In this document: positions 2,970 to 12,443 of the stretch, in pieces | Layout: each line of letters starts with the position of its first letter | Position numbering within the stretch: the stretch's first letter is position 1 | Assembly: GCA_964398815.1 (NCBI GenBank) | Contig: CAYNNZ010000004.1 | Location: 8,074 to 72,073 of the forward strand | DNA length: 64,000 nucleotides | Reading direction: 5' to 3' | Origin: an uncultured Candidatus Saccharibacteria bacterium | Lineage (GTDB): Bacteria > Patescibacteriota > Minisyncoccia > Phycocordibacterales > Phycocordibacteraceae | Program-made: the position numbers and the translations under genes | The notes under the pieces: model-generated | Told to the model about the DNA's origin: nothing | Database searches by the model: none | What the model saw: the letters and a program-made list of their open reading frames with translations, nothing else

Positions 2970-3055
2970 GCGTCGGTGGTAGAGTGGTCAATTACAACAG
3001 GCTGTAAACCTGTCGGCTTCGGCCTACGAAGGTTCGAATCCTTCCCGGCGCACCA
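2970..3055 (+). tRNA. tRNA-Tyr (anticodon GTA), long variable arm, CCA encoded
   Basis: Hand-folded cloverleaf: acceptor GCGTCGG/CCGGCGC; anticodon arm ACAGG-CTGTAAA-CCTGT; variable arm CGGCTTCGGCCTACG; T arm GAAGG-TTCGAAT-CCTTC; ACCA end. Confidence 0.93.
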
Positions 3056-3062
3056 AGAAAAG

Positions 3063-3086
3063 AACTCCCGTTCGGGAGTTTTTTCT
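3063..3086. terminator. bidirectional intrinsic terminator shared by tRNA-Tyr and tyrS
   Basis: AACTCCC-GTTC-GGGAGTT followed by TTTTTC on plus and preceded by AAGAAAAG (T-rich on minus). Confidence 0.7.
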
Positions 3087-4317
3087 ATTTGAAGCGGACG
3101 AGCAGCTTCTCGGACTTCCCTTTCTGCAGGACCGCGAGGCCGTCATTCAGGTCCGCCTCCCGGAGCGGTCGGTCCTCGGTAATCTGCTCACCATTCAAGC
3201 GAATGCCTTTGCCCTCGATAAGCCGGCGCGCCTCAGACTTTGATGCGACGAAGCCAGCGCCAGTGAGCGCATCGATAATGGACGTCTCAGCGACCACACT
3301 CGCAGAAGGTACGGAGGCGAACAGTGAGTCTCGCTCAGATGCTGAAAGCGAAGTGAAGGGAGCGGCGCCGAAGAGGACATCCGTGAATTTCTCGGCACGC
3401 GATGCCTCTGCCGCACCATGGACGAGCGCCGTGACCTCATCAGCGAGTTTTCGCTGCGCCGTGCGACGTTCAGGATTGCGGCCATGGAGTTCCATGAGCG
3501 CATCTATCTCAAACGGCGGGAGAAAGGTGAAATACTTCAGGTATTTGCCGACGATATCGTCAGGCTGATTTACCCAAAACTGGTAGAACGCAAACGGCGA
3601 GGTCTTCTTGGGGTCGAGCCAGACTGCATTCCCTTCTGACTTACCGAATTTTTTACCAGTTGAGTCCGTTACGAGCGGCGTTGTAAATGCGAATGCCTCC
3701 TTACCTGCCTTGCGTCGAATGAGCTCGACTCCTGAGAGGATATTGGTCCACTGGTCGGACGCACCTATTTGCACGTCACACCCGTATTTCTGATTGAGCA
3801 CGAGATAGTCGTATCCCTGGAGCAGTGAGTAGGCGAATTCAGTGTATGAAATGCTCTCATCGGGTGTTTCAAGGCGACGGCGGATGATATCGCGCTTCAC
3901 GAGCTCGTTCACCGTGAAGTGCTTGCCGATATCACGCAGGAAATCTACCAATTTAATCTTGAGAAGCCAGTCTGCGTTATTCACGAGGGTGACTTTTGCG
4001 CCGATAATGCGCTGCATTTGCTCGCGAAGCGCCTTTGCGTTCTTCGCTATGACACGCGCGTCTGCCAGTTGTCGTTCACCGCTCTCACGAGGATCGCCAA
4101 TCATGCCGGTACCGCCACCAACCAGCAGGATGATGCGATGACCCGCATCCGCAAGGCGCTTCATAGTAAGCACCACCATGAGATGTCCCGCATGCATGGA
4201 GTCCGCAGACGGGTCTACACCCAGATAGACCGTGCGCTTCGTCTCGAAAATCTTTGCAGGCTCTGCCGAGTGATGCTCGACGAGACCTCGGGCTTCCAAG
4301 TCTTTAAGTAAATCCAT
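3085..4317 (-). CDS. tyrS: tyrosyl-tRNA synthetase
   Basis: 410 aa. GVDPSADSMHAGHL (HIGH region), KFGKSEGNAVWL (KMSKS variant), and a C-terminal S4-like KSEARRLIEGKGIRLNGEQI. Confidence 0.95.
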   Translation of the reverse strand: MDLLKDLEARGLVEHHSAEPAKIFETKRTVYLGVDPSADSMHAGHLMVVLTMKRLADAGHRIILLVGGGTGMIGDPRESGERQLADARVIAKNAKALREQMQRIIGAKVTLVNNADWLLKIKLVDFLRDIGKHFTVNELVKRDIIRRRLETPDESISYTEFAYSLLQGYDYLVLNQKYGCDVQIGASDQWTNILSGVELIRRKAGKEAFAFTTPLVTDSTGKKFGKSEGNAVWLDPKKTSPFAFYQFWVNQPDDIVGKYLKYFTFLPPFEIDALMELHGRNPERRTAQRKLADEVTALVHGAAEASRAEKFTDVLFGAAPFTSLSASERDSLFASVPSASVVAETSIIDALTGAGFVASKSEARRLIEGKGIRLNGEQITEDRPLREADLNDGLAVLQKGKSEKLLVRFK

Positions 4318-4335
4318 AGCGCGAGTATAGCAGAC

Positions 4336-5079
4336 CTACTCGGTCGCTTCCTTGAGCACATTCCGCACATGGCGCTCTGAAGTCTCGAATCGCTCGATAG
4401 TTTCGGCGCAGTACGGATTGAATCGATACACATCCTCGAACAGTGCGCGGTCATGCTTCACGCTGTCGACTGCGTCCATAAGGAATCCGAAGGACACCGT
4501 ATCAATCTCCGTGCGCTCAAAGCCTGATGCGTGAACGATTTGGCCAATGTAGTGGGTGAGAAAGAGTGTGTCTGCAAGATGCTTATCATGCTGGTCAGAG
4601 GACATGGTAACGACATCGAACCCAATGCCGCGCAGACGATCGAGAAAGGCATCGACCTCATCTTGCGTGAGTGTATGCTCAGTAACCACAATGCGCATGC
4701 CAGCCACGTTTTCTTTACGCTTTGCGTAACTCTCCGGGCCGAACATCGGGTGCGTGGCAATGTAGCGGCGAGCGCCCAGAATCTCTTTCAGGAGACCTGC
4801 TGTGTAGGACTTTACGGTCGATACATCGACAACGATGGTGTCAGCCCCAAGCAAGGGAGCCGCCTTCCGGAGCGTGTCTCCGAACGCATGGATGGGCACA
4901 GCCAGAATGACCGCATCTGCCTTGCAGACATCTTCAAATGAATGGAAGAGTTCGCCAGCAGGAGCCTGGCGCGAAGAGTGCACGAGAATGCGCACTTCTG
5001 GCGCAAAGCGCTTAATGAGGACTGCCAGAAAGGCGCCGAAGGCGCCGTATCCGATTATGCCGATGCTGCCCAATTTCAT
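4336..5079 (-). CDS. tyrA: prephenate/arogenate dehydrogenase-like NAD(P)-binding protein
   Basis: 247 aa. N-terminal GIIGYGAFGAF dinucleotide fold, DVSTVK, THPMFGP and HDKHLADTLFLTHYI blocks typical of the TyrA family. Confidence 0.8.
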   Translation of the reverse strand: MKLGSIGIIGYGAFGAFLAVLIKRFAPEVRILVHSSRQAPAGELFHSFEDVCKADAVILAVPIHAFGDTLRKAAPLLGADTIVVDVSTVKSYTAGLLKEILGARRYIATHPMFGPESYAKRKENVAGMRIVVTEHTLTQDEVDAFLDRLRGIGFDVVTMSSDQHDKHLADTLFLTHYIGQIVHASGFERTEIDTVSFGFLMDAVDSVKHDRALFEDVYRFNPYCAETIERFETSERHVRNVLKEATE

Positions 5080-5104
5080 GGGCGCATCCTAGCACAAGCT
5101 GCCG

Positions 5105-6568
5105 CTATGCGGCTGGGAGTTCAACAATGAAGTGAGAACCCTTTCCGCTTCCTGCGGATTCAATCCATGTCTTACCGCCATTACCCTCTACTAGCTGCTT
5201 CACCACGTAGAGACCAAGGCCTGTACCGGTCGTATTGACCTTGTTGGCATCGCGAGCACGAGTGAATTTAGAGAATAGCTTAGGGATATCTTCCTTCGAG
5301 ATACCCACGCCCGTATCCGCGACTGTGACGCGTACTCCGGTAGGTGCCTTAGCAACAGAGACCGTAACACTACCCTGCTTTGTGTACTTAATTGCGTTAT
5401 CAATAAGGTTTGTGAGGACCTGCTTTATCTTGCCGATGTCGGCATTTACCATTGCCGCCTCGCCTCCTCCGTACACGAACGCAATGCTTTTTTGCTTAGC
5501 AACAGCTTGGAATTCGTTCACCACTTTCTGAGAAAGTTCCGCAAGGTCAAACTTGCTCTTCTCATACTTCATGCGGCCCTGCTCAATGCGTGAGATGTTC
5601 AGGTAATCCTCGATAGAATTGACCATGAGACGAGACGACTCCTGAATAACCGACAACGGGTCAACAAGATATGGTGGAATCGCACCATACGTGCCATCAA
5701 TCATGTTTGCTGCGTAGCCGCGGATTGCCGTAATAGGCGCACGCAGCTGGTGGGTAGCCACCGACAAGAATTCGCTCTTAAGGCGATCAAGTTCCGCAAG
5801 ATTCTCAGCACGACGCTCCCAGATGTAAATGAGTGTAAGTGCGAGAAGTGAAATAACTACGACGAGGAAAGCAATGAACAAGAGGAACGGATAGAGCGTT
5901 GCCTGGGTAATGGTAAAGAAGTCGTCGGCCTTAATGTCAGTAGCGAGAATAGCGACAACCGTTCCGCTCGCGTTTCGGATAGGTGCATAACCAGTGAGCA
6001 CCGTCCCATAATCATCCGTATAGAGGTCCTTCACCGTAAGCGGGCCGTCGTAAGCCTGAAAAGCCTCTGGGATATCTACCGCCTCAGGATATGGCTGACC
6101 TGGCCACTGCAACTTGTCCGGCCCGTCAGGTTCTATCTTCCCATCGCGATTCACATCAACATCGTTGTTTGGATTTGCATCCGTATTTGCATACGGGTCA
6201 ATGGAGTCCGCATCAGCGATGTATTCCATCTCATTCGGGTTGTTCGCCATCTTGCGGAACATGTACATGTACACGATGCCGCTATTGGCATACTTGGACC
6301 GATTAAGTTCGTTGACGACGCGTGCCCATTCAGGCTTCTTGGCATCTGCTTCAGTATGGAGCGCCTCTAGATCAACGGGCGATATCGCTGTTGCGGTCGT
6401 TATGGAAACCGTGAGGAGCCGCTCACGAAGGTTCTCCGTGAGCAGCTTGATGGTCTGCTGATACAGGAGCCAGGAGGCTGCCGCAGCAATAAGAATAATG
6501 ACAATGGAGAAGGCGCTCCCGAACCATACGAGGCGCCGCAGTTTCTGTGCTTGAGTTTGAGTATTCAT
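5105..6568 (-). CDS. sensor histidine kinase with large extracytoplasmic domain
   Basis: 487 aa. Two TM segments flank an extracytoplasmic domain of about 190 aa. H-box ATHQLRAPITAIRGYA, N-box LIDNAIKYT, G-boxes DTGVGI and GTGLGL. No response regulator in the window. Confidence 0.85.
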   Translation of the reverse strand: MNTQTQAQKLRRLVWFGSAFSIVIILIAAAASWLLYQQTIKLLTENLRERLLTVSITTATAISPVDLEALHTEADAKKPEWARVVNELNRSKYANSGIVYMYMFRKMANNPNEMEYIADADSIDPYANTDANPNNDVDVNRDGKIEPDGPDKLQWPGQPYPEAVDIPEAFQAYDGPLTVKDLYTDDYGTVLTGYAPIRNASGTVVAILATDIKADDFFTITQATLYPFLLFIAFLVVVISLLALTLIYIWERRAENLAELDRLKSEFLSVATHQLRAPITAIRGYAANMIDGTYGAIPPYLVDPLSVIQESSRLMVNSIEDYLNISRIEQGRMKYEKSKFDLAELSQKVVNEFQAVAKQKSIAFVYGGGEAAMVNADIGKIKQVLTNLIDNAIKYTKQGSVTVSVAKAPTGVRVTVADTGVGISKEDIPKLFSKFTRARDANKVNTTGTGLGLYVVKQLVEGNGGKTWIESAGSGKGSHFIVELPAA

Positions 6569-6617
6569 CTCCGCAAGCCGTTGCCGGTACCCTTACAGCC
6601 TAGCACGCGGCTAGAGG

Positions 6618-8480
6618 CTATACGTCAAGCAGGTGGGATATTTCCCGAGAGTCAATTTCTGAAAGGAATTCAGCCAGGCGAGGACCTGAGCGCGCAGCAA
6701 ACAGAAGCTGGTACACGTGCTGGAAGAAACGTAGCTGCATTTCCTTCTTCTCGCCGGCAGACACCCCGCGCGCCACCGGTATTGCATATAGTTTCGTTTT
6801 GAATGCTTCGAACTCCATCGCATCACGATTCTCGAGAAGCGTGCGGAGTCCCTGTATCCAAGCGAGTTCATACGGCTGCATCTGCGCGATGTAGTCTGCG
6901 TTCGGCTCCGCGAGCAGATTGTACGCATGCTCCTTGTCGAGGCGCACATAGCGACTGCCACCGGTAATGACGCGGGTATCGAGATAGGTCGTAGTGGTTT
7001 CCTTACCCGCATCTTCTGCCTGATTCGCATCAGACTTAATGCGTAAAAGCTTTGCGATATTCTTGCGGCTAATCTGCGTGCATGCTGCTGCTTTCTTCCG
7101 CAATCCGGCAAGAGACTTCACGCGCTCGAGCGGGCGTGCGACCCATTCATATATATCTCGCTGCGGAAGAGTGGCCTTCGCGATAAGGCGTCCGTTTATG
7201 GAAAGGCTCGATGCGCCGTAACCCAAGCCACCGTAGGGCTCAGTACCGCGCTCATTACCGGCTGCGTGCAGGTGGGTGTTATGCAGGAATGAGCGGCGAT
7301 CATGCAGTACCACGCCATTGATTTTGCGACCAATAAGCTTCTTAACGTATGCACTACCGCCATACAGCGTGACGTACATAGCGTTCGTCGCGTATTTAGG
7401 GTCTTCAAAGTAGTTCTTCAGGTCTTCATCGCGCATGTAGGTCTGCAGGAATATGACGGGGGCAAATATTTCATTGAAATTGCCTCCCTCAGAAAGAGGT
7501 TTTGCGATGATGGTCGGCTGCAGCGTCGCATCCTGTGCACGCATTACGCCCGGGGTCGTTGAGTCGAGCCAACGGCGATTATCTATGAGGAAATCTTGGA
7601 TGCGCACGAGGTCATGCGGGTCGCTGATAGGACCCACGCGGCAAGTACGGTCGCGGTAATCGCCGACTCCAACCGCACGGATACCATCACGTAGTTTGTG
7701 AAGGAAGAGCGGGAGGACGTCGTTGTGCACGAGCACTGCATTTGGAGCGGCACAGTCCTGTCCCTGGTTGTAGAGTTGGAGCGTAAGCACCGCATCTACG
7801 GCCTTATCGATGTTTGCGTCTTTGCCGACGACGACCGGGTTGTGGCCAGAGCCGTTACCGATGAAAAGAGTACGCTGGTCGAACACGAATCGCAGCTGGT
7901 CGGCATGCACCGGAGTACCGGTGAAGATGACCGCCTCAGTGACCGGCATGCTTTCCTTCGTCTTCGGATTAATACGCAACGCGGTGCGCTCACGGAGAAA
8001 GTCCGCACGCGTCGCGTGGGAAACGACGATATTCGGAAAGCGCTCGAACACCTCGAGAAGCGCGAGCATCTTTGGGAAGAAGTGGCGCATGCTGTGCGGG
8101 ATGCGGAAATGCACCGAGCTTCCCATGAAGGACGGGATGATGACGAAGCAGGCAAATGCGTAGAGCGGCTGATTACGTGGAAGGAATGCAGCAACTTGGC
8201 CGATGCGTGTTTTGAAATATTCTTTGTTCTCGTCGAGACTACGCAGGAGGTCGAGTGTGCGCGAGACTTCGTCTACGACTACTTCGTAGCTTTCGTACTC
8301 AAGGAGGATATGTGCGAGCGCTTCAAAGTTCGATTCGATGTGCTCAGCAAGCGCTTCGCTCTGGCTTTTGATTTTCTTGTAGTTAAGCGGGGTGTAGGCA
8401 GCGTAGGACGCTTTCGACACTGCTTTTTTTGCCGCTGCCGGACGCGTGCGCTTCCGTGCGGTTTTTTTCTTCGCAGCCAT
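6618..8480 (-). CDS. fusion protein: acylating-type aldehyde dehydrogenase-like domain + class I LysRS C-terminal-like helical domain
   Basis: ALDH blocks VIFTGTPVHADQL, FIGNGSGHNPVVVGKDANIDKAV, LYNQGQDCAAPNAVLVH (catalytic Cys context) and EPYGGLGYGASS. The last 59 residues align ungapped with the LysRS C-terminus at 10878-12443, with 25 identities by hand count, including FF..VY.LL....GPRL..FL and a common end LL-x-V. Start taken at MAAKKK (ATG 8480); the track ORF extends to 8528. Confidence 0.8.
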   Translation of the reverse strand: MAAKKKTARKRTRPAAAKKAVSKASYAAYTPLNYKKIKSQSEALAEHIESNFEALAHILLEYESYEVVVDEVSRTLDLLRSLDENKEYFKTRIGQVAAFLPRNQPLYAFACFVIIPSFMGSSVHFRIPHSMRHFFPKMLALLEVFERFPNIVVSHATRADFLRERTALRINPKTKESMPVTEAVIFTGTPVHADQLRFVFDQRTLFIGNGSGHNPVVVGKDANIDKAVDAVLTLQLYNQGQDCAAPNAVLVHNDVLPLFLHKLRDGIRAVGVGDYRDRTCRVGPISDPHDLVRIQDFLIDNRRWLDSTTPGVMRAQDATLQPTIIAKPLSEGGNFNEIFAPVIFLQTYMRDEDLKNYFEDPKYATNAMYVTLYGGSAYVKKLIGRKINGVVLHDRRSFLHNTHLHAAGNERGTEPYGGLGYGASSLSINGRLIAKATLPQRDIYEWVARPLERVKSLAGLRKKAAACTQISRKNIAKLLRIKSDANQAEDAGKETTTTYLDTRVITGGSRYVRLDKEHAYNLLAEPNADYIAQMQPYELAWIQGLRTLLENRDAMEFEAFKTKLYAIPVARGVSAGEKKEMQLRFFQHVYQLLFAARSGPRLAEFLSEIDSREISHLLDV

Positions 8481-8493
8481 AAGTGGTGTCCGC

Positions 8494-8522
8494 AGAATAC
8501 CTGATTTTATCGAAAACGTCAA
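8494..8522 (-). promoter_or_regulatory. putative sigma70-type promoter of the ALDH-fusion gene
   Basis: Minus-sense TTGACG-N17-TATTCT, with the -10 element ending 13 nt upstream of ATG 8480. This implies a very short leader with no SD. Confidence 0.35.
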
Positions 8523-8608
8523 TAGCAAGCCCTCGGGTGTGTATAAAAGAAGACCGCGCCGTGTTACGGGCGCGGTCAGGTAGTTGCTCTACCGAGGGAG
8601 GCAGAGCG

Positions 8609-8998
8609 TTAGGCGGGGGTCGGTTTGCCGAACTGGGTCATCAGGATGCCGATGACCACCGCGGCGACACCGACCTTCTGGGCGAGGGACATGGTGTTCC
8701 ACTCATTCCGGAAGATGATGGCGACGCCGATAGTCGCGACCGTCAGCAGGGCGTCCACGTTGGCGGAGCCGAGCGCGAGGCCCAGTCGGTCAGCCGTGGC
8801 CCCGAAGGTGATGAACACCAGCGGGGCGATGATGAGCATCGGCGCAAGCCAGATGTTCGCCCACTGGGAGCTCCAGTTCCCCGAAGCTGTTTCGGCCCAG
8901 CGGGTCGCGATGACGTTGGCCGCCAGCGCGATGCCGACAGTGACCGCGACATAGAGCCAGGACAGCATAAGGTCCTGGGAGATTCCGAATATACGCAT
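8609..8998 (-). CDS. small 4-TM membrane protein (SMR/DMT-like)
   Basis: 129 aa from MRIFGISQD, with GAGGAGG 6-7 nt upstream. Four hydrophobic segments. A hairpin plus T-tract terminator lies at about 8551-8576 downstream. Confidence 0.5.
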   Translation of the reverse strand: MRIFGISQDLMLSWLYVAVTVGIALAANVIATRWAETASGNWSSQWANIWLAPMLIIAPLVFITFGATADRLGLALGSANVDALLTVATIGVAIIFRNEWNTMSLAQKVGVAAVVIGILMTQFGKPTPA

Positions 8999-9095
8999 GT
9001 GTGCCTCCTCGGCAGCTAGAGCATGTAGCACCTATCGGCTACTATGATATTACTATAGCACACTATGTACTAAAAATCAAGCCCTCGGAAACGGC

Positions 9096-9272
9096 CTAGT
9101 TGAACGATACGTCGCCGGACTCTTCGAGACTCCACCCAATGATGCCGATAACCGTGAACGCATAGCCGAGGCCTGACACGATGCCGGAGATGATGGCTAC
9201 GTGATGGAAGAAAAAGGAGAAAAATCCCGCAATCATGAGGAAGATTCCGAACCGCATGATGGTAAGTGGCAT
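9096..9272 (-). CDS. 58-aa two-TM membrane peptide (below the ORF-track cutoff)
   Basis: Hand translation: MPLTIMRFGIFLMIAGFFSFFFHHVAIISGIVSGLGYAFTVIGIIGWSLEESGDVSFN. TATACT lies 6 nt upstream of the ATG (possible leaderless start). No SD. Confidence 0.3.
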   Translation of the reverse strand: MPLTIMRFGIFLMIAGFFSFFFHHVAIISGIVSGLGYAFTVIGIIGWSLEESGDVSFN

Positions 9273-9294: not shown

Positions 9295-10851
9295 CTACTC
9301 TTCCGTCAGGTACTGTCGATAATGGTCCTCGGGCTCGATGTCAGACGTGTACGGGTGTAGATATTCGGAGAGTGTTCCAAGCGCAACGCGTATCTTCTTA
9401 TCCTCGAGTACCCATAACTTCCCTGCTATCGCATCGATGAATGCGCGGTCATGCGTGATAGCGAGCACCGTGCCGTCGTATCCCTGTATTGCTTCGACAA
9501 TTGCCTCCCACGTGGGTGGGTCTACATGATTGGTCGGCTCGTCGAGGATGAGGAACTCGGGAGCGAGCGCGAACGTGAGCGCGAGCTTGAATCTCGCCTG
9601 CTGTCCGCCAGAGAGCTGCCAGAGCGGGCGGTCCATAACTGACGGAGCAAGACCATAGCGGCGCAGTGCGCTTCTGCATCTGACTTCGTCCCAGTCGAGC
9701 GTCGACCGCATAACCTCGAGCGCGCTTTGCGTTTCATCAATTCCCTTCAGATGGTCCTGCGTCATTACCTGCCATCGGATATCGTTGCCGATTCGAACCG
9801 TTCCAGAAGAGGGAGTAAGCATTCCCGTGATGAGGGAGAGGAGTGTGGACTTTCCTGAGCCATTCCTGCCAAACACTACTACTTTCTCTCCGAAGCGCAG
9901 TTCGGCATTTGCGTTCTTGAATACTTCTTTCGTTCCATAGGCGAACGAAAGGTCCTTAATTTCGACAAGCAACTTTCCTCCCTTCTGCACGACTGTCGAG
10001 AGCCTGATTTTAGGTTTGTCCGGTTCGGTTCGCGGTGGAGCGTCTGCATGACTCTCTTTCAGTTCCTCGTAGCGACGCTTGGTCTGGCGATAGGTGGCGA
10101 CGCCGCTATCGCTCACCCGAGTTTTCATCTTGAGCATCTCGACGGTCTTCTTTAGGCGTTCCAGTGTTTTGCGTTCCATCTCCCAGTCGCGTCCTGCACC
10201 GGTGAGCACACGGACTTTCTCATCGAGATATTCCTCGTACGTCATGGAGTAGACCGTCAGGTGACCGTTCGCCAGTTCGATGATGGAGTCTGCGAGCGCA
10301 TCAATGAGGTACTGGTCATGTGAAATAAATACGAGACCGCCTCGGTATGCCGAGAGCGCGCGTACGAGCCATTCGATGGTCTGGTAGTCGAGATGGTTTT
10401 CAGGCTCATCGAGCGCAAGAAATGCGGAACCCGTGGCAAGTCCGGCGGCCATTTCTAGTTTCTTAAGTTCCCCGCCAGAGAGGTCTCCGCAGCGCGCACC
10501 TTTGAGACGTTCCTGTGATGCTCCGAGTTCGAATGCGCAGTCAGCCAAAAGCGAAATCGCCTTGCTCACACCGCTCGCAGGCATCCGCGACGCGAGAAAG
10601 TCGTAGGGCGATTGCTCTTCGTCGCCCGAGAAGTCCTGCGGAATATAGACGCATCCAGCATCGAGTCCGAACAATTCCCCCTCATCTGGTTCGAGTTTTC
10701 CGCACAGAATCTTGAGGAGCGTCGATTTGCCTGCACCGTTCTCGCCAACGATTGCCATCTTGGCACCCATGGCAAGCGTGAAAGAAACCCCGGAAAGCGC
10801 CGGAGTCGGTCCGTAGGACTTATGAATATTTTTGAGCGTGATAGTACGCAT
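9295..10851 (-). CDS. ABC-F family ATPase (two tandem ABC domains, no TM domain)
   Basis: 518 aa. Walker A GENGAGKST and GRNGSGKST, signature LSGGELKK and LSGGQQAR, and a charged linker between domains. Confidence 0.9.
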   Translation of the reverse strand: MRTITLKNIHKSYGPTPALSGVSFTLAMGAKMAIVGENGAGKSTLLKILCGKLEPDEGELFGLDAGCVYIPQDFSGDEEQSPYDFLASRMPASGVSKAISLLADCAFELGASQERLKGARCGDLSGGELKKLEMAAGLATGSAFLALDEPENHLDYQTIEWLVRALSAYRGGLVFISHDQYLIDALADSIIELANGHLTVYSMTYEEYLDEKVRVLTGAGRDWEMERKTLERLKKTVEMLKMKTRVSDSGVATYRQTKRRYEELKESHADAPPRTEPDKPKIRLSTVVQKGGKLLVEIKDLSFAYGTKEVFKNANAELRFGEKVVVFGRNGSGKSTLLSLITGMLTPSSGTVRIGNDIRWQVMTQDHLKGIDETQSALEVMRSTLDWDEVRCRSALRRYGLAPSVMDRPLWQLSGGQQARFKLALTFALAPEFLILDEPTNHVDPPTWEAIVEAIQGYDGTVLAITHDRAFIDAIAGKLWVLEDKKIRVALGTLSEYLHPYTSDIEPEDHYRQYLTEE

Positions 10852-10877: not shown

Positions 10878-12443
10878 CTAGACGGAAAGAAGTTTCAGAA
10901 TCTGCTTGCGGTCGCTTGCCCAGAGGAACGTGCCGAGGCGCGGTCCGGTATCACGACCGATGAGCAACATGTAGACATCCTTGAAGAATGCGCGTTGAAC
11001 TCGCTTCAACTCCGCCTCCTCGATTCCAGCTTCCTTCGGTATGTCATAGACGAGCGTTTCGAGTTCCCCGACCGTATCGCCTGCAGTCTCGAGTGCGCTT
11101 CGTAGTCGCTCGATACGCGCTTTCTGTTCGCTACCGAGCGAGTTCGCATACTGTGTGTCTGCCTGTGTTCGTAGTGCAATAACCTCGTCTGGGTTGTACT
11201 TCACGAGCCAGTTGCGCGCGAGTGGCAGTCTCCGCTCAATACTTTCCGTTGAATAGGAAAGTGACAGTGCTTCGAGTATCGCACCGAGTTTGTCTGCCTG
11301 CCATCCCACAATCTGACCAAACGAGACTGCCTGACGGAATGGAATGGCGTCAGTTGCGCCGCGCTCCGTATCAAACTCATCATATTGGCGATAGATTTCG
11401 GTATTGAATGCTAGTTCGAAAGATTGGTCAGGACTCTTGCGGAAATAGAGCCACTTGAGCAGTTCCGGCTCATAGATATCGAGAAGTTCGAGCGGAGAGA
11501 CTGCATTCCCCTTTGAGCCTGACATTTTTGCGCCGAGCCCCTGGATACCCACGAACTTATACTCGACGAATATCGGTGCGGCGTACTCGTAGATGTCGTG
11601 TGCGACAGTCGAGGCGACATCGTAACTGCCTCCTGGCGACGCGTGGTCATGCCCACCCGGCTCGAAGTGAACTTTCTCGTGGCGCCAACGCATCGGCCAG
11701 TCGATTTTCCACGCGAGCTTTGCGATATGTTCCTCGGCTATGTCGACCGTCTCAGTCTGTTTGGTGTCGACACAGAGATAGGTAACGTTCGTACCATCCA
11801 CCTTCTGGACCTTCGTGATGTCCGTTCCCGTAAAGCGGGAATAAACCGCTATCGGGTAGTACGTCTCGCGATATGCCGCCGGATCGATGCCTTTTTCGCC
11901 CTTCGCCTTATCAGTCATGAACGAGAGCAGGATGTCTGCAATCTCAAGTCTTCGGTCGAGTGCTTCACGTATCGCCGCATCATATGCACCACTCTCATGG
12001 AGCTCGGTCTGATTACGGTATTCGATGTCTATGCCGAGCTTTGCCATCGCTTCCACGAACGGTGCCTGGAAGTGTTCCGCGTAGGAGGCATGCTCACCGC
12101 AGAAGTCCGGAATCTTTGAAAGCGGCTTGCCGATATGTTCGACATAGGATTCCGGAACGCCCGCAGGGACTTTGCGGAAGCGGTCAAAGTTGTCCCAAGA
12201 GAATATGAGGCGTGCGTTTTTACCCTTCTCTACAAGCGCATTGCGTACGAGGTGCGCGGTCACTATGTCGCGGAAGTTACCGAAGTGCACGACGCCCGAT
12301 GGACTGATGCCGGCCGCGCAGGTATAGAGCGACTCGTCGGGATGCTGGCGGATTACCTCATCAGCAACATCGCTCGCCCAATTACTGGTCGATTTCAGCT
12401 TTCCGAGGTCAAATCTATTGGTATAGCCTGCGCTTTCTGCCAT
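10878..12443 (-). CDS. lysK: lysyl-tRNA synthetase, class I
   Basis: 521 aa. GISPSGVVHFGNFRD (HIGH-type), KMSGSKGN (KMSKS), and C-terminal FFKDVYMLLIGRDTGPRLGTFL typical of class I LysRS. Confidence 0.93.
   Translation of the reverse strand: MAESAGYTNRFDLGKLKSTSNWASDVADEVIRQHPDESLYTCAAGISPSGVVHFGNFRDIVTAHLVRNALVEKGKNARLIFSWDNFDRFRKVPAGVPESYVEHIGKPLSKIPDFCGEHASYAEHFQAPFVEAMAKLGIDIEYRNQTELHESGAYDAAIREALDRRLEIADILLSFMTDKAKGEKGIDPAAYRETYYPIAVYSRFTGTDITKVQKVDGTNVTYLCVDTKQTETVDIAEEHIAKLAWKIDWPMRWRHEKVHFEPGGHDHASPGGSYDVASTVAHDIYEYAAPIFVEYKFVGIQGLGAKMSGSKGNAVSPLELLDIYEPELLKWLYFRKSPDQSFELAFNTEIYRQYDEFDTERGATDAIPFRQAVSFGQIVGWQADKLGAILEALSLSYSTESIERRLPLARNWLVKYNPDEVIALRTQADTQYANSLGSEQKARIERLRSALETAGDTVGELETLVYDIPKEAGIEEAELKRVQRAFFKDVYMLLIGRDTGPRLGTFLWASDRKQILKLLSV

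Follow-up and report, generated by a model that had tools for sequence, protein, structure and literature searches.

Within a 64,000-nucleotide stretch of the genome of an uncultured Candidatus Saccharibacteria bacterium (contig CAYNNZ010000004.1; the whole stretch is hereafter called the window) there is a gene encoding an aldehyde dehydrogenase (ALDH)-like reductase joined to the C-terminal domain of a class I lysyl-tRNA synthetase (LysRS). This fusion is a conserved, uncharacterised enzyme family of the ultra-small bacteria of the candidate phyla radiation (CPR). Relatives of its ALDH domain are fused to complete LysRS proteins of both classes, from which we conclude that activated lysine, most likely carried on tRNA, is probably reduced to an aldehyde. 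Sequence comparison makes it probable that the protein is a thioester-forming NAD(P)H reductase of LysRS-activated lysine; that the window's form is directed to Lys-tRNA is a predicted assignment for which we find the balance even. Directly observed are the identities of the domains, the conservation of the active site, the repeated joining to LysRS and the recurrence of certain neighbours. An earlier note on this DNA had proposed a reductase fold tethered to a LysRS tRNA-recognition module and acting on activated lysine, and the core of that proposal stands, carried by the recurrent fusions, the identity of the tail and the invariant signature.

The fusion is translated from an ATG at 8480, with a TTG at 8528 as an alternative start. 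From the N-terminus it consists of a basic disordered segment, the ALDH-fold domain, a basic linker and the C-terminal domain, as follows.

6618..8480, minus strand: the complete gene, ALDH-like reductase plus class I LysRS C-terminal domain (called A-type below), 620 amino acids plus stop in the list of open reading frames (ORFs)
8397..8480, minus strand: residues 1-28, a Lys/Arg-rich disordered N-terminal extension (MAAKKKTARKRTRPAAAKKAVSKASYAA), with a predicted local distance difference test score (pLDDT) <50 for residues 1-20
7116..8396, minus strand: residues 29-455, the ALDH-fold domain, from Pfam, PDB alignments and Foldseek
6996..7115, minus strand: residues 456-495, a basic linker with a conserved K(D/N)VxKLLRLK helix, from alignments A1 and A3
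6621..6995, minus strand: residues 496-620, a helical domain homologous to the class I LysRS C-terminal anticodon-binding subdomain

An AlphaFold2 model of the fusion, made with an alignment of 120 sequences, has pLDDT 91.5 and a predicted template modelling score of 0.89, with disorder confined to residues 1-20. The best 120 of 381 protein-search matches are 572-651 amino acids long, come from independent assemblies and have 51-63% identity to the window protein over 95-100% of its length; the named sources among them are Patescibacteria/Parcubacteria (Paceibacteria, Kaiserbacteria, Zambryskibacteria and others). With more than 100 full-length Patescibacteria homologues at this coverage an assembly chimera or frameshift artefact, which the earlier note had seen as a danger, is ruled out. 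The annotations of these homologues conflict, being 'aldehyde dehydrogenase family protein', 'acyl-CoA reductase-like...' or 'lysyl-tRNA synthetase class 1', and the present analysis corrects the naming of proteins variously called 'aldehyde dehydrogenase', 'acyl-CoA reductase-like' or 'lysyl-tRNA synthetase'.

We scanned one genome per GTDB species for the locus. This gave 96 loci, of which 80 were kept and analysed, and with three fetched earlier these form a set of 83 in which architectures were read from six-frame ORFs. Three class I architectures share a single ALDH clade at ~40-50% identity. The A form, that of the window, has the ALDH domain followed by a LysRS-I tail and is found in 44 non-redundant CPR loci. 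The B form, also from CPR, has the ALDH domain followed by a complete class I LysRS in a single protein of 980-1120 amino acids (L043, L048, L049 and L054, confirmed by Pfam in L043, L048 and L054), while in L052 and L053, again CPR, ALDH and class I LysRS are adjacent split genes. In the C form a class I LysRS-like N-terminal half precedes the ALDH domain. Proteins of this form, 936-975 amino acids long, are present in Pseudomonas cichorii, P. coronafaciens, Photorhabdus, Xenorhabdus, Brenneria, Photobacterium, Vibrio cholerae and V. vulnificus, and all are annotated only as 'aldehyde dehydrogenase family protein'. The C arrangement is split into adjacent genes in Photorhabdus asymbiotica (L077); among actinobacteria it is fused in Saccharothrix (L074, 962 amino acids) and divided between adjacent genes in the other loci. 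The flanks of the Saccharothrix gene (GH10, GNAT and a pyridoxal-phosphate enzyme) are uninformative. The C-type LysRS-like half keeps the HIGH (PHxGT) and KMSKS (KISKS) motifs and the C-terminal Y..G...GPR motif. Gammaproteobacteria that carry C-type fusions use a class II LysRS for translation, and their LysRS-I-like half is therefore a dedicated paralogue.

Two proteins (P0260 and P0261) are intermediates in which more of the LysRS is retained than in the window tail. Short and long CPR forms are intermixed in a rough neighbour-joining distance tree of the ALDH domains, on which we do not rely; the intermixing suggests that truncation may have occurred repeatedly. An order of anticodon domain then ALDH (P0274, P0280 and P0286) was considered as an independent architecture and dropped, because P0274 is a LysRS-ALDH gene split by an insertion sequence (L085). 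That gene, at 3589-9132 of its locus, is interrupted by an element encoding a DDE transposase, is followed by a major facilitator superfamily (MFS) transporter and lies on a conjugative element with a relaxase nearby, so that the LysRS-ALDH cassette is mobile. It is also a warning that some database proteins of the 'anticodon-domain plus ALDH' kind are fragments. A Pol-beta-type nucleotidyltransferase directly adjoins the B-type fusions on the downstream side (L043 4134-5789, L048 13005-13862 and L054 12984-14493) and is present too in an atypical short-form locus (L050 12633-14225). It is fused or adjacent to a GTP-cyclohydrolase-II-like domain in three of these four loci (L043, L050 and L054) and lacks one in L048. 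No dedicated tRNA genes were found beside the long fusions.

The ALDH domain was also used in a phmmer search of 1.84 billion cluster representatives, giving 212 clusters at E<=1e-30. A census of these by domain mapping and by Pfam and NCBIfam scans revealed further A and B forms, together with ALDH domains, 33-34% identical to that of the window, fused to class II LysRS-like proteins. The best NCBIfam match of one of these (P0315) is lysine-tRNA ligase NF001756 (lysS; E 3e-61 over 4-469 of 488), compared with 7e-9 for AspRS. A dedicated search found ~20 clusters of class II LysRS plus Aldedh, 837-949 amino acids in length, several of which are labelled 'lysyl-tRNA synthetase class II/acyl-CoA reductase-like...' by JGI. 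The next most similar ALDH domains to those linked to class II LysRS are those linked to LysRS-I. In P0332, from the class II lineage, the OB anticodon-binding domain is well kept and the catalytic core has degenerated, a layout that echoes the architecture in the window. Two unrelated LysRS classes serve as fusion partners, which points to the activation of lysine as what they share.

More distant members of the clade stand alone or are fused to Pol-beta nucleotidyltransferase, aminotransferase, GNAT, AstE-like or PLD domains, with weaker matches to AAA_33 P-loop and epimerase-type domains. The nucleotidyltransferase in P0319, P0343 and P0355 is of the same family as that of the B-type loci. 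On plasmids of Streptomyces and Bacillus a stand-alone member heads a conserved cassette with a thiamine-diphosphate enzyme, an ANL adenylate-forming enzyme and a ketosynthase-like protein (L086 8926-15140, Streptomyces sp. Mg1 plasmid; L087 9028-15131, B. thuringiensis pBMB171), apparently an uncharacterised biosynthetic module. Its surroundings include a nonribosomal peptide synthetase gene in B. thuringiensis and ATP-grasp and NikS-like genes in Streptomyces. By analogy, the pairing with ANL enzymes fits the synthetase-reductase logic of LuxC/LuxE. The theme of the clade thus appears to be a reductase-type ALDH partnered with carboxylate-activating enzymes, which in the window's half are LysRS of either class.

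The fusion is a member of the ALDH superfamily both by profile and by fold. All the ALDH blocks quoted in the earlier note for the N-terminal part are present, and Aldedh (PF00171) is the sole Pfam match, covering residues 179-371 (E 1.3e-22, 80.5 bits against a cut-off of 23). Foldseek matches the model to dozens of ALDH structures at E ~1e-18 over ~430-490 columns, with only ~15% identity. In HMMER alignments to ALDHs of the PDB, Cys243 of the YNQGQDC motif falls on the nucleophile Cys, and Asn209 of FIGNGSGHNP lines up with the Glu that acts as general base in (M)ELGG. The replacement of the ELGGK block, noticed earlier from the letters, is therefore real, and Glu268 of the ELGG block, the classical mark of a hydrolytic ALDH, is absent with Asn209 in its place. 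Arg126 occupies the Lys192 position and His129 that of Glu195, judged from the ungapped spacing from the PWN-type motif FLPRN103QP. These equivalences (Lys192, Glu195 and the others) rest on what we take to be the ALDH2 sequence numbering. The active-site positions, each checked at the level of its codon, are as follows.

8172-8174, minus strand: Asn103, the oxyanion Asn (Asn169 equivalent)
8103-8105, minus strand: Arg126, at the Lys192 position
7854-7856, minus strand: Asn209, in place of the general-base Glu268
7842-7844, minus strand: His213
7752-7757, minus strand: Asp242-Cys243, the nucleophile (Cys302 equivalent)
7470-7472, minus strand: Glu337, at the Glu399 position

Asn103, Asn209, Asp242, Glu337 and the PYGG block are unchanged in all 120 homologues, as is Cys243, the nucleophile that the earlier note had singled out. 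Asn103, Asn209, His213, Asp242, Cys243 and Glu337 are kept in 80 of the 80 ALDH domains aligned from the 83 loci, and across CPR, gammaproteobacterial and actinobacterial members 98 positions of the domain are at least 93% conserved. Residues on the nicotinamide side (Glu337, Phe339 and Gly188 of FTG) are invariant even in very distant members. Full-length proteins among the top 150 cluster representatives keep the signature N/R-K/G/N/H/D-C/E, with occasional Ile/Val213 and, in a few, Ser209; truncated fragments lack part of it. Position 129, the counterpart of Glu195 in NAD-specific ALDHs, is His, Gln or Asn in the CPR short form, Thr in gammaproteobacterial and actinobacterial members and Glu in one full-LysRS CPR fusion, and in most members the residue there looks compatible with NADPH.

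The suggestion in the earlier note that the protein belongs to the AdhE/EutE/PduP or LuxC branch has to be withdrawn. The window fusion has no match to LuxC (PF05893) at E<=0.1. One relative alone (L065) passes the LuxC gathering score (E 5e-6, 26 bits against 21), the matches of other relatives being weaker (E ~1e-3 to 1e-5, 18.5-23 bits). None of the PduP, EutE and AdhE families is among the best 25 of its 44 NCBIfam matches, which are hydrolytic ALDH families scoring 30-65 bits against cut-offs of 500-900; aminoaldehyde and semialdehyde dehydrogenases lead them with 50-65 bits, where the cut-offs are >500. From its sequence the protein belongs to a separate clade outside those branches, with its own signature of FLPRNQP, NGxGHNP and YNQGQDC. 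Since the Cys, the oxyanion hole and the nicotinamide-binding residues are kept and the hydrolytic base is never present, the chemistry available to the clade is thioester exchange and hydride transfer.

The last 59 residues of the fusion align without gaps to the last 59 of the class I LysRS encoded in the window, with 25 identities. This is exactly the count made by hand in the earlier note, and in 100,000 shuffles the maximum was 15, none reaching 25. The similarity extends further upstream with a single gap, as had also been claimed: BLASTP aligns fusion residues 496-620 with LysRS residues 398-521 at 30% identity (E 2e-11). The conserved motif of the tail is Q..FF...Y.LL.G...GPRL..FL, and Tyr590, Gly599, Pro600 and Phe605 are unchanged in all 120 homologues, so that the alignment shows the tail to be under clear purifying selection. 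In 1IRX, the sole class I LysRS structure solved, residues 406-519 align with residues 398-519 of the window LysRS. A separate model of fusion residues 456-620 (pLDDT 82) has 1IRX as its top Foldseek match, followed by ~15 bacterial glutamyl-tRNA synthetase (GluRS) entries. Bacterial GluRS has an alpha-helix-cage anticodon-binding domain, and class I LysRS has a homologous one (PMC2978374). Together the alignment, the fold matches and this homology identify the tail, by sequence and by fold, as the distal subdomain of the LysRS-I/GluRS anticodon-binding domain, which upholds both the homology to the LysRS helical domain and the earlier note's placing of that LysRS region in the anticodon-recognition part of the synthetase.

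The fusion is not a LysRS, for the catalytic domain is absent. Pfam and NCBIfam scans of the window fusion gave no tRNA-synt_1f match, and the Rossmann catalytic domain that bears HIGH and KMSKS is lacking. Also missing are the stem-contact fold and the proximal half of the helical region, only LysRS 398-521 being represented. Across the family the median isoelectric point is 8.9 for the tail, 9.7 for the linker and 6.7 for the ALDH core; the C-terminus of the genuine LysRS of the same window is less basic than the tail, at 6.3. The N-terminal extension has a median length of 26 amino acids and a median net charge of +4 across the 120 homologues. The tail appears to have been retained and made more basic than the domain of the genuine LysRS.

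The neighbours that bear on the function of the fusion are these.

8609..9031, minus strand: small four-helix membrane protein of EamA/DMT type, its start probably an internal Met, a candidate exporter (from profile and Pfam)
5105..6568, minus strand: membrane histidine kinase, two transmembrane helices around a ~175-amino-acid extracytoplasmic domain, then HisKA and HATPase_c (Pfam)
10878..12443, minus strand: stand-alone complete class I LysRS, of the family that was the source of the tail (tRNA-synt_1f E 2e-104, TIGR00467 E 3e-111)

The earlier note had the fusion heading a tightly spaced same-strand array. The spacing is indeed tight, with gaps of 49, 25 and 18 bp separating fusion, histidine kinase, a PDH_N-like (TyrA-like) gene and tyrS, but the array starts one gene earlier, with the EamA-type gene. 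Conservation likewise divides the array: the EamA-type protein and the kinase recur, whereas the TyrA-like gene and tyrS lie near the fusion only in the closest relatives of the window protein.

A profile of the EamA-type protein picks out exactly one ORF next to the fusion in 34 of the 46 CPR fusion loci that are not duplicates. In the full set of 10,133 six-frame ORFs its only other matches are small membrane proteins encoded in the class II LysRS-ALDH operons (two-sequence test, E 3e-22; scan of all ORFs, 3e-18 and 3e-16), which Pfam labels EamA. Those operons (L088 7001-12676 and L089 7001-12552) are headed by ALDH-LysRS2, followed by DUF1254/DUF1214, a sulfotransferase and lastly the small EamA gene, which suggests that the product is modified, possibly sulfated, and exported. 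An MFS transporter comes after the C-type gene in P. cichorii and likewise on the conjugative element. The presence of transporter partners in three lineages (EamA with the window's and the class II forms, MFS with the gammaproteobacterial form) suggests that the product is an exported small molecule.

The histidine kinase, whose core is HK853-like, lies directly downstream of the fusion on the same strand in 35 of the 44 A-type loci, sometimes with overlapping stop and start codons. Its sensor domain (5921-6463 of the window) has only faint Cache-type Pfam matches (E ~0.1), and it recurs in large CPR proteins near the fusion (L015 11956-14124, L020 6272-9322 and L047 4052-9515). No kinase was found in the B-type loci and no kinase-reductase fusion among the 150 cluster representatives. 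The 64-kb window contains no receiver domain; single-domain CheY-like receivers lie by the module in six other loci (L017 210-587, L039 13256-13678, L040 12711-13079, L041 9175-9597, L042 2453-2830 and L045 13365-14166).

A LysRS is encoded near the fusion in only two of the 44 A-type loci, the window and L001. The window enzyme matches 1IRX at E 2e-85 and is 49-52% identical to four of six ALDH-linked CPR LysRS, and 39% and 44% identical to the other two. The LysRS-I of the closely related L001 (5604-7169) is only 29% identical to it in the catalytic domain, compared with ~60% between the two fusions and 70% between their ALDH domains, and we conclude that two divergent LysRS-I lineages circulate in these bacteria. 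Downstream of the window LysRS by 26 bp, on the same strand and before the module is reached, is an ABC-F type ATPase (9295-10851, minus strand; two ABC_tran and one ABC_tran_Xtn). A tRNA-Tyr(GTA) gene (2970-3055, plus strand) is convergent with tyrS (3085-4317, minus strand), 30 bp from its 3' end. Neither a T-box or other Rfam element nor a gene for tRNA-Lys was found in the window.

Biological carboxylate reduction proceeds by activation, formation of a thioester and reduction by NAD(P)H, as in LuxCE, carboxylic acid reductase (CAR) and Lys2, ProB/ProA, and GluRS with glutamyl-tRNA reductase (GluTR). Given this pattern, a clade repeatedly welded to lysine-activating enzymes is best read as a lysyl reductase. 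An enzyme-bound aminoacyl-adenylate normally stays on its synthetase. Class I LysRS needs tRNA to activate lysine, even for formation of the adenylate (PMC2034488). Taken together, these properties would make Lys-tRNA the diffusible donor for a protein that has no catalytic domain of its own. That the synthetase catalytic domain is missing and the anticodon subdomain kept, and made more basic, also argues for Lys-tRNA(Lys) as the natural donor.

We infer the substrate, the direction of reaction, the cofactor and the product as follows. The stand-alone class I LysRS would charge tRNA(Lys), acting presumably as supplier in trans, and the Lys-tRNA(Lys) would be captured by the retained anticodon-binding domain, probably with help from the basic linker and N-terminus. 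Attack of Cys243 on the aminoacyl ester would leave the enzyme carrying a lysyl thioester, which Asn103 would stabilise and which, for want of the general-base Glu, would escape hydrolysis. Reduction by NAD(P)H would then release L-lysine aldehyde (2,6-diaminohexanal), or a product of its spontaneous cyclisation or dimerisation, which would probably be exported by the co-encoded small EamA-type membrane protein. In this scheme tRNA would take the role played by the carrier protein in carboxylic-acid reductases, or by LuxE for LuxC. Membership of the class of aminoacyl-tRNA reductases is suggested by comparison, from the LysRS fusions, the kept anticodon domain and the missing general base.

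Several points weigh against reduction of Lys-tRNA. The case for it is wholly inferential, drawn from sequence comparison. The tail represents no more than the distal half of the helical part of LysRS that binds the anticodon, and is a candidate tRNA binder. Distant members pair with ANL enzymes, nucleotidyltransferases, aminotransferases and GNATs, so that the clade as such has no requirement for tRNA; the full fusions could draw directly on lysyl-adenylate. Where a CPR bacterium has its LysRS fused to the reductase, the two processes of reduction and translation would draw on one supply of Lys-tRNA. The paralogous LysRS-like halves are assumed to be specific for lysine, and a purely metabolic role leaves the tight link to a histidine kinase unexplained. 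Activated lysine might be reduced by an enzyme that is not directed to tRNA at all, Cys243 taking the lysyl group from LysRS-bound lysyl-adenylate or another carrier, with the tail docking onto LysRS or the LysRS-tRNA complex or persisting as a slowly decaying remnant of an ancestral ALDH-LysRS fusion. This would accord with the placing of both active sites in one polypeptide in the full fusions, with distant members whose ANL and Pol-beta nucleotidyltransferase partners would not be expected to involve tRNA, and with a short form apparently derived from the long one, intermediates being extant. We nonetheless consider it unlikely, because the tail is under purifying selection (Y590, G599, P600 and F605 unchanged in 120) and more basic than the genuine domain, because a LysRS is nearby in only two of 44 loci, and because lysyl-adenylate is enzyme-bound and requires tRNA for its synthesis by class I LysRS (PMC2034488). 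An amine or hydroxyl group, on a lipid, a cell-wall precursor or a metabolite for instance, might instead capture the thioester, making the protein a non-redox lysyl transferase in which the nucleotide is structural. Loss of the hydrolytic base would give a long-lived thioester, the top Foldseek matches include ALDH variants crystallised with amide products, which we read as capture of the thioester by an amine, and the small EamA-type partner presumably resembles ArnE/F flippase subunits. LysX, an MprF-LysRS protein, provides a precedent for LysRS fused to a transferase that consumes Lys-tRNA (PMC9437257). Such transfer is highly improbable in our view, since the nicotinamide-holding Glu337, Phe339 and Gly188 are invariant in very distant members, which argues for hydride transfer.

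The unexplained kinase link motivates two further readings. In one, the protein is a sensor of tRNA charging for the adjacent kinase, the LysRS-derived domain binding charged or uncharged tRNA(Lys) and the ALDH chemistry being secondary or a read-out; GCN2 uses a HisRS-like domain in a comparable role. A tRNA-binding-type domain kept without its catalytic domain, a kinase gene that immediately follows on the same strand in 35 of 44 loci with occasional stop/start overlap, and the stand-alone receivers in six loci are all as this would predict. We think it very unlikely all the same: a pseudoenzyme would not be expected to keep all its catalytic and cofactor residues invariant, as this family does, the long CPR, gammaproteobacterial and class II fusions have no kinase but have transporters, and no kinase-reductase fusion occurs among the 150 cluster representatives. 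In the other, which is speculative and quite unlikely, EamA protein, reductase and kinase would form a make-export-sense circuit fed by translation. Lysine aldehyde made from Lys-tRNA(Lys) would cyclise or dimerise, for example to a compound of pyrazine type, and after export by the EamA protein the product would be sensed by the extracytoplasmic, possibly Cache-like, domain of the co-transcribed kinase. This molecule, or one related to it, would also be what the LysRS-ALDH-MFS cassettes of gammaproteobacteria produce. Least probable of all, we believe, is an ordinary aldehyde-oxidising or CoA-acylating dehydrogenase of unrelated substrate with a LysRS tail acquired by evolutionary accident. 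The database labels ('aldehyde dehydrogenase family protein' or 'acyl-CoA reductase-like') would suit it, as would best NCBIfam matches to aminoaldehyde and semialdehyde dehydrogenases, though these reach 50-65 bits against cut-offs >500. Fusion or adjacency to LysRS that arose in three or more arrangements and involves each of the two classes, the absence of the general base everywhere in the clade, and a window protein lying outside the LuxC, PduP and EutE families all speak against it.

As a reductase of Lys-tRNA, the window protein would work like GluTR and LuxC/LuxE by analogy but belongs to neither. GluTR (HemA) acts downstream of GluRS, the class I synthetase family closest to class I LysRS, and the chemistry proposed here is the same, with an active-site Cys attacking an aminoacyl-tRNA ester to form a thioester that NADPH reduces to an amino aldehyde. 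Unlike the window family, for which use of tRNA is a proposal, GluTR does not have the ALDH fold, lacks a synthetase-derived anticodon-binding domain and acts on Glu, not Lys; Pfam, PDB sequence and fold searches of the window fusion found no GluTR fold. LuxC/LuxE, CAR and Lys2 likewise combine an adenylate-forming activator with a thiol-based NAD(P)H reductase to make an aldehyde, and LuxC is itself an ALDH-superfamily reductase that relatives of the window protein match weakly. In the window family the activator is instead an aminoacyl-tRNA synthetase of class I or II, and the presumed carrier is tRNA in place of a protein thiol or phosphopantetheine arm. PduP, EutE, the AdhE N-domain and ProA share the ALDH fold and nucleophile Cys; they are not known to carry out hydrolytic deacylation, their acyl-enzyme exchanging with an activated acyl donor or acceptor. 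The window clade has no significant sequence membership of these families, and its fusion partners differ. From class I LysRS (1IRX) and bacterial GluRS the fusion has about its last 125 residues, homologous to their C-terminal helical subdomain, but it differs in lacking the Rossmann domain, stem-contact fold and proximal helical half, and in its more basic tail. LysX, the fusion of MprF with LysRS, joins a LysRS to an enzyme that uses up the Lys-tRNA so made outside translation (PMC9437257, PMC2922099). Fusions of this kind thus have a precedent in LysX, although its LysRS is class II and its partner is a GNAT-type transferase of lysine to lipid, whereas the window family is a reductase.

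What would be new here is an activated-carboxylate reductase with a new partner and a new carrier. To our knowledge, and equally in recent reviews, GluTR is the only aminoacyl-tRNA reductase described so far. We found no description of a LysRS-ALDH fusion or a lysyl-tRNA reductase in the searchable full-text literature, which omits most subscription journals, and neither is present in PMC2922099, PMC5388404, PMC9437257 or PMC12945691, which include recent reviews of synthetase paralogues and aminoacyl-tRNA-dependent enzymes. Within that literature the earlier view that no family of this architecture had been described is sustained. The joining of one reductase clade to both LysRS classes is an unusually clean case of convergent domain recruitment, pointing to a lysine-derived aldehyde metabolite. 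If our reading is true, the family would provide a second natural aminoacyl-tRNA reductase, of a different fold, in which tRNA serves as acyl carrier for the reduction of a carboxylate. Its presence in the cultivable and tractable Photorhabdus, Xenorhabdus, Pseudomonas cichorii and P. coronafaciens, Vibrio cholerae and V. vulnificus, and Brenneria makes the hypothesis directly testable. The family is conserved across much of the Patescibacteria, whose biosynthetic enzymes are very few, and should the make-export-sense circuit exist, its product would be a tRNA-derived autoinducer or a host-directed signal in episymbiotic bacteria.

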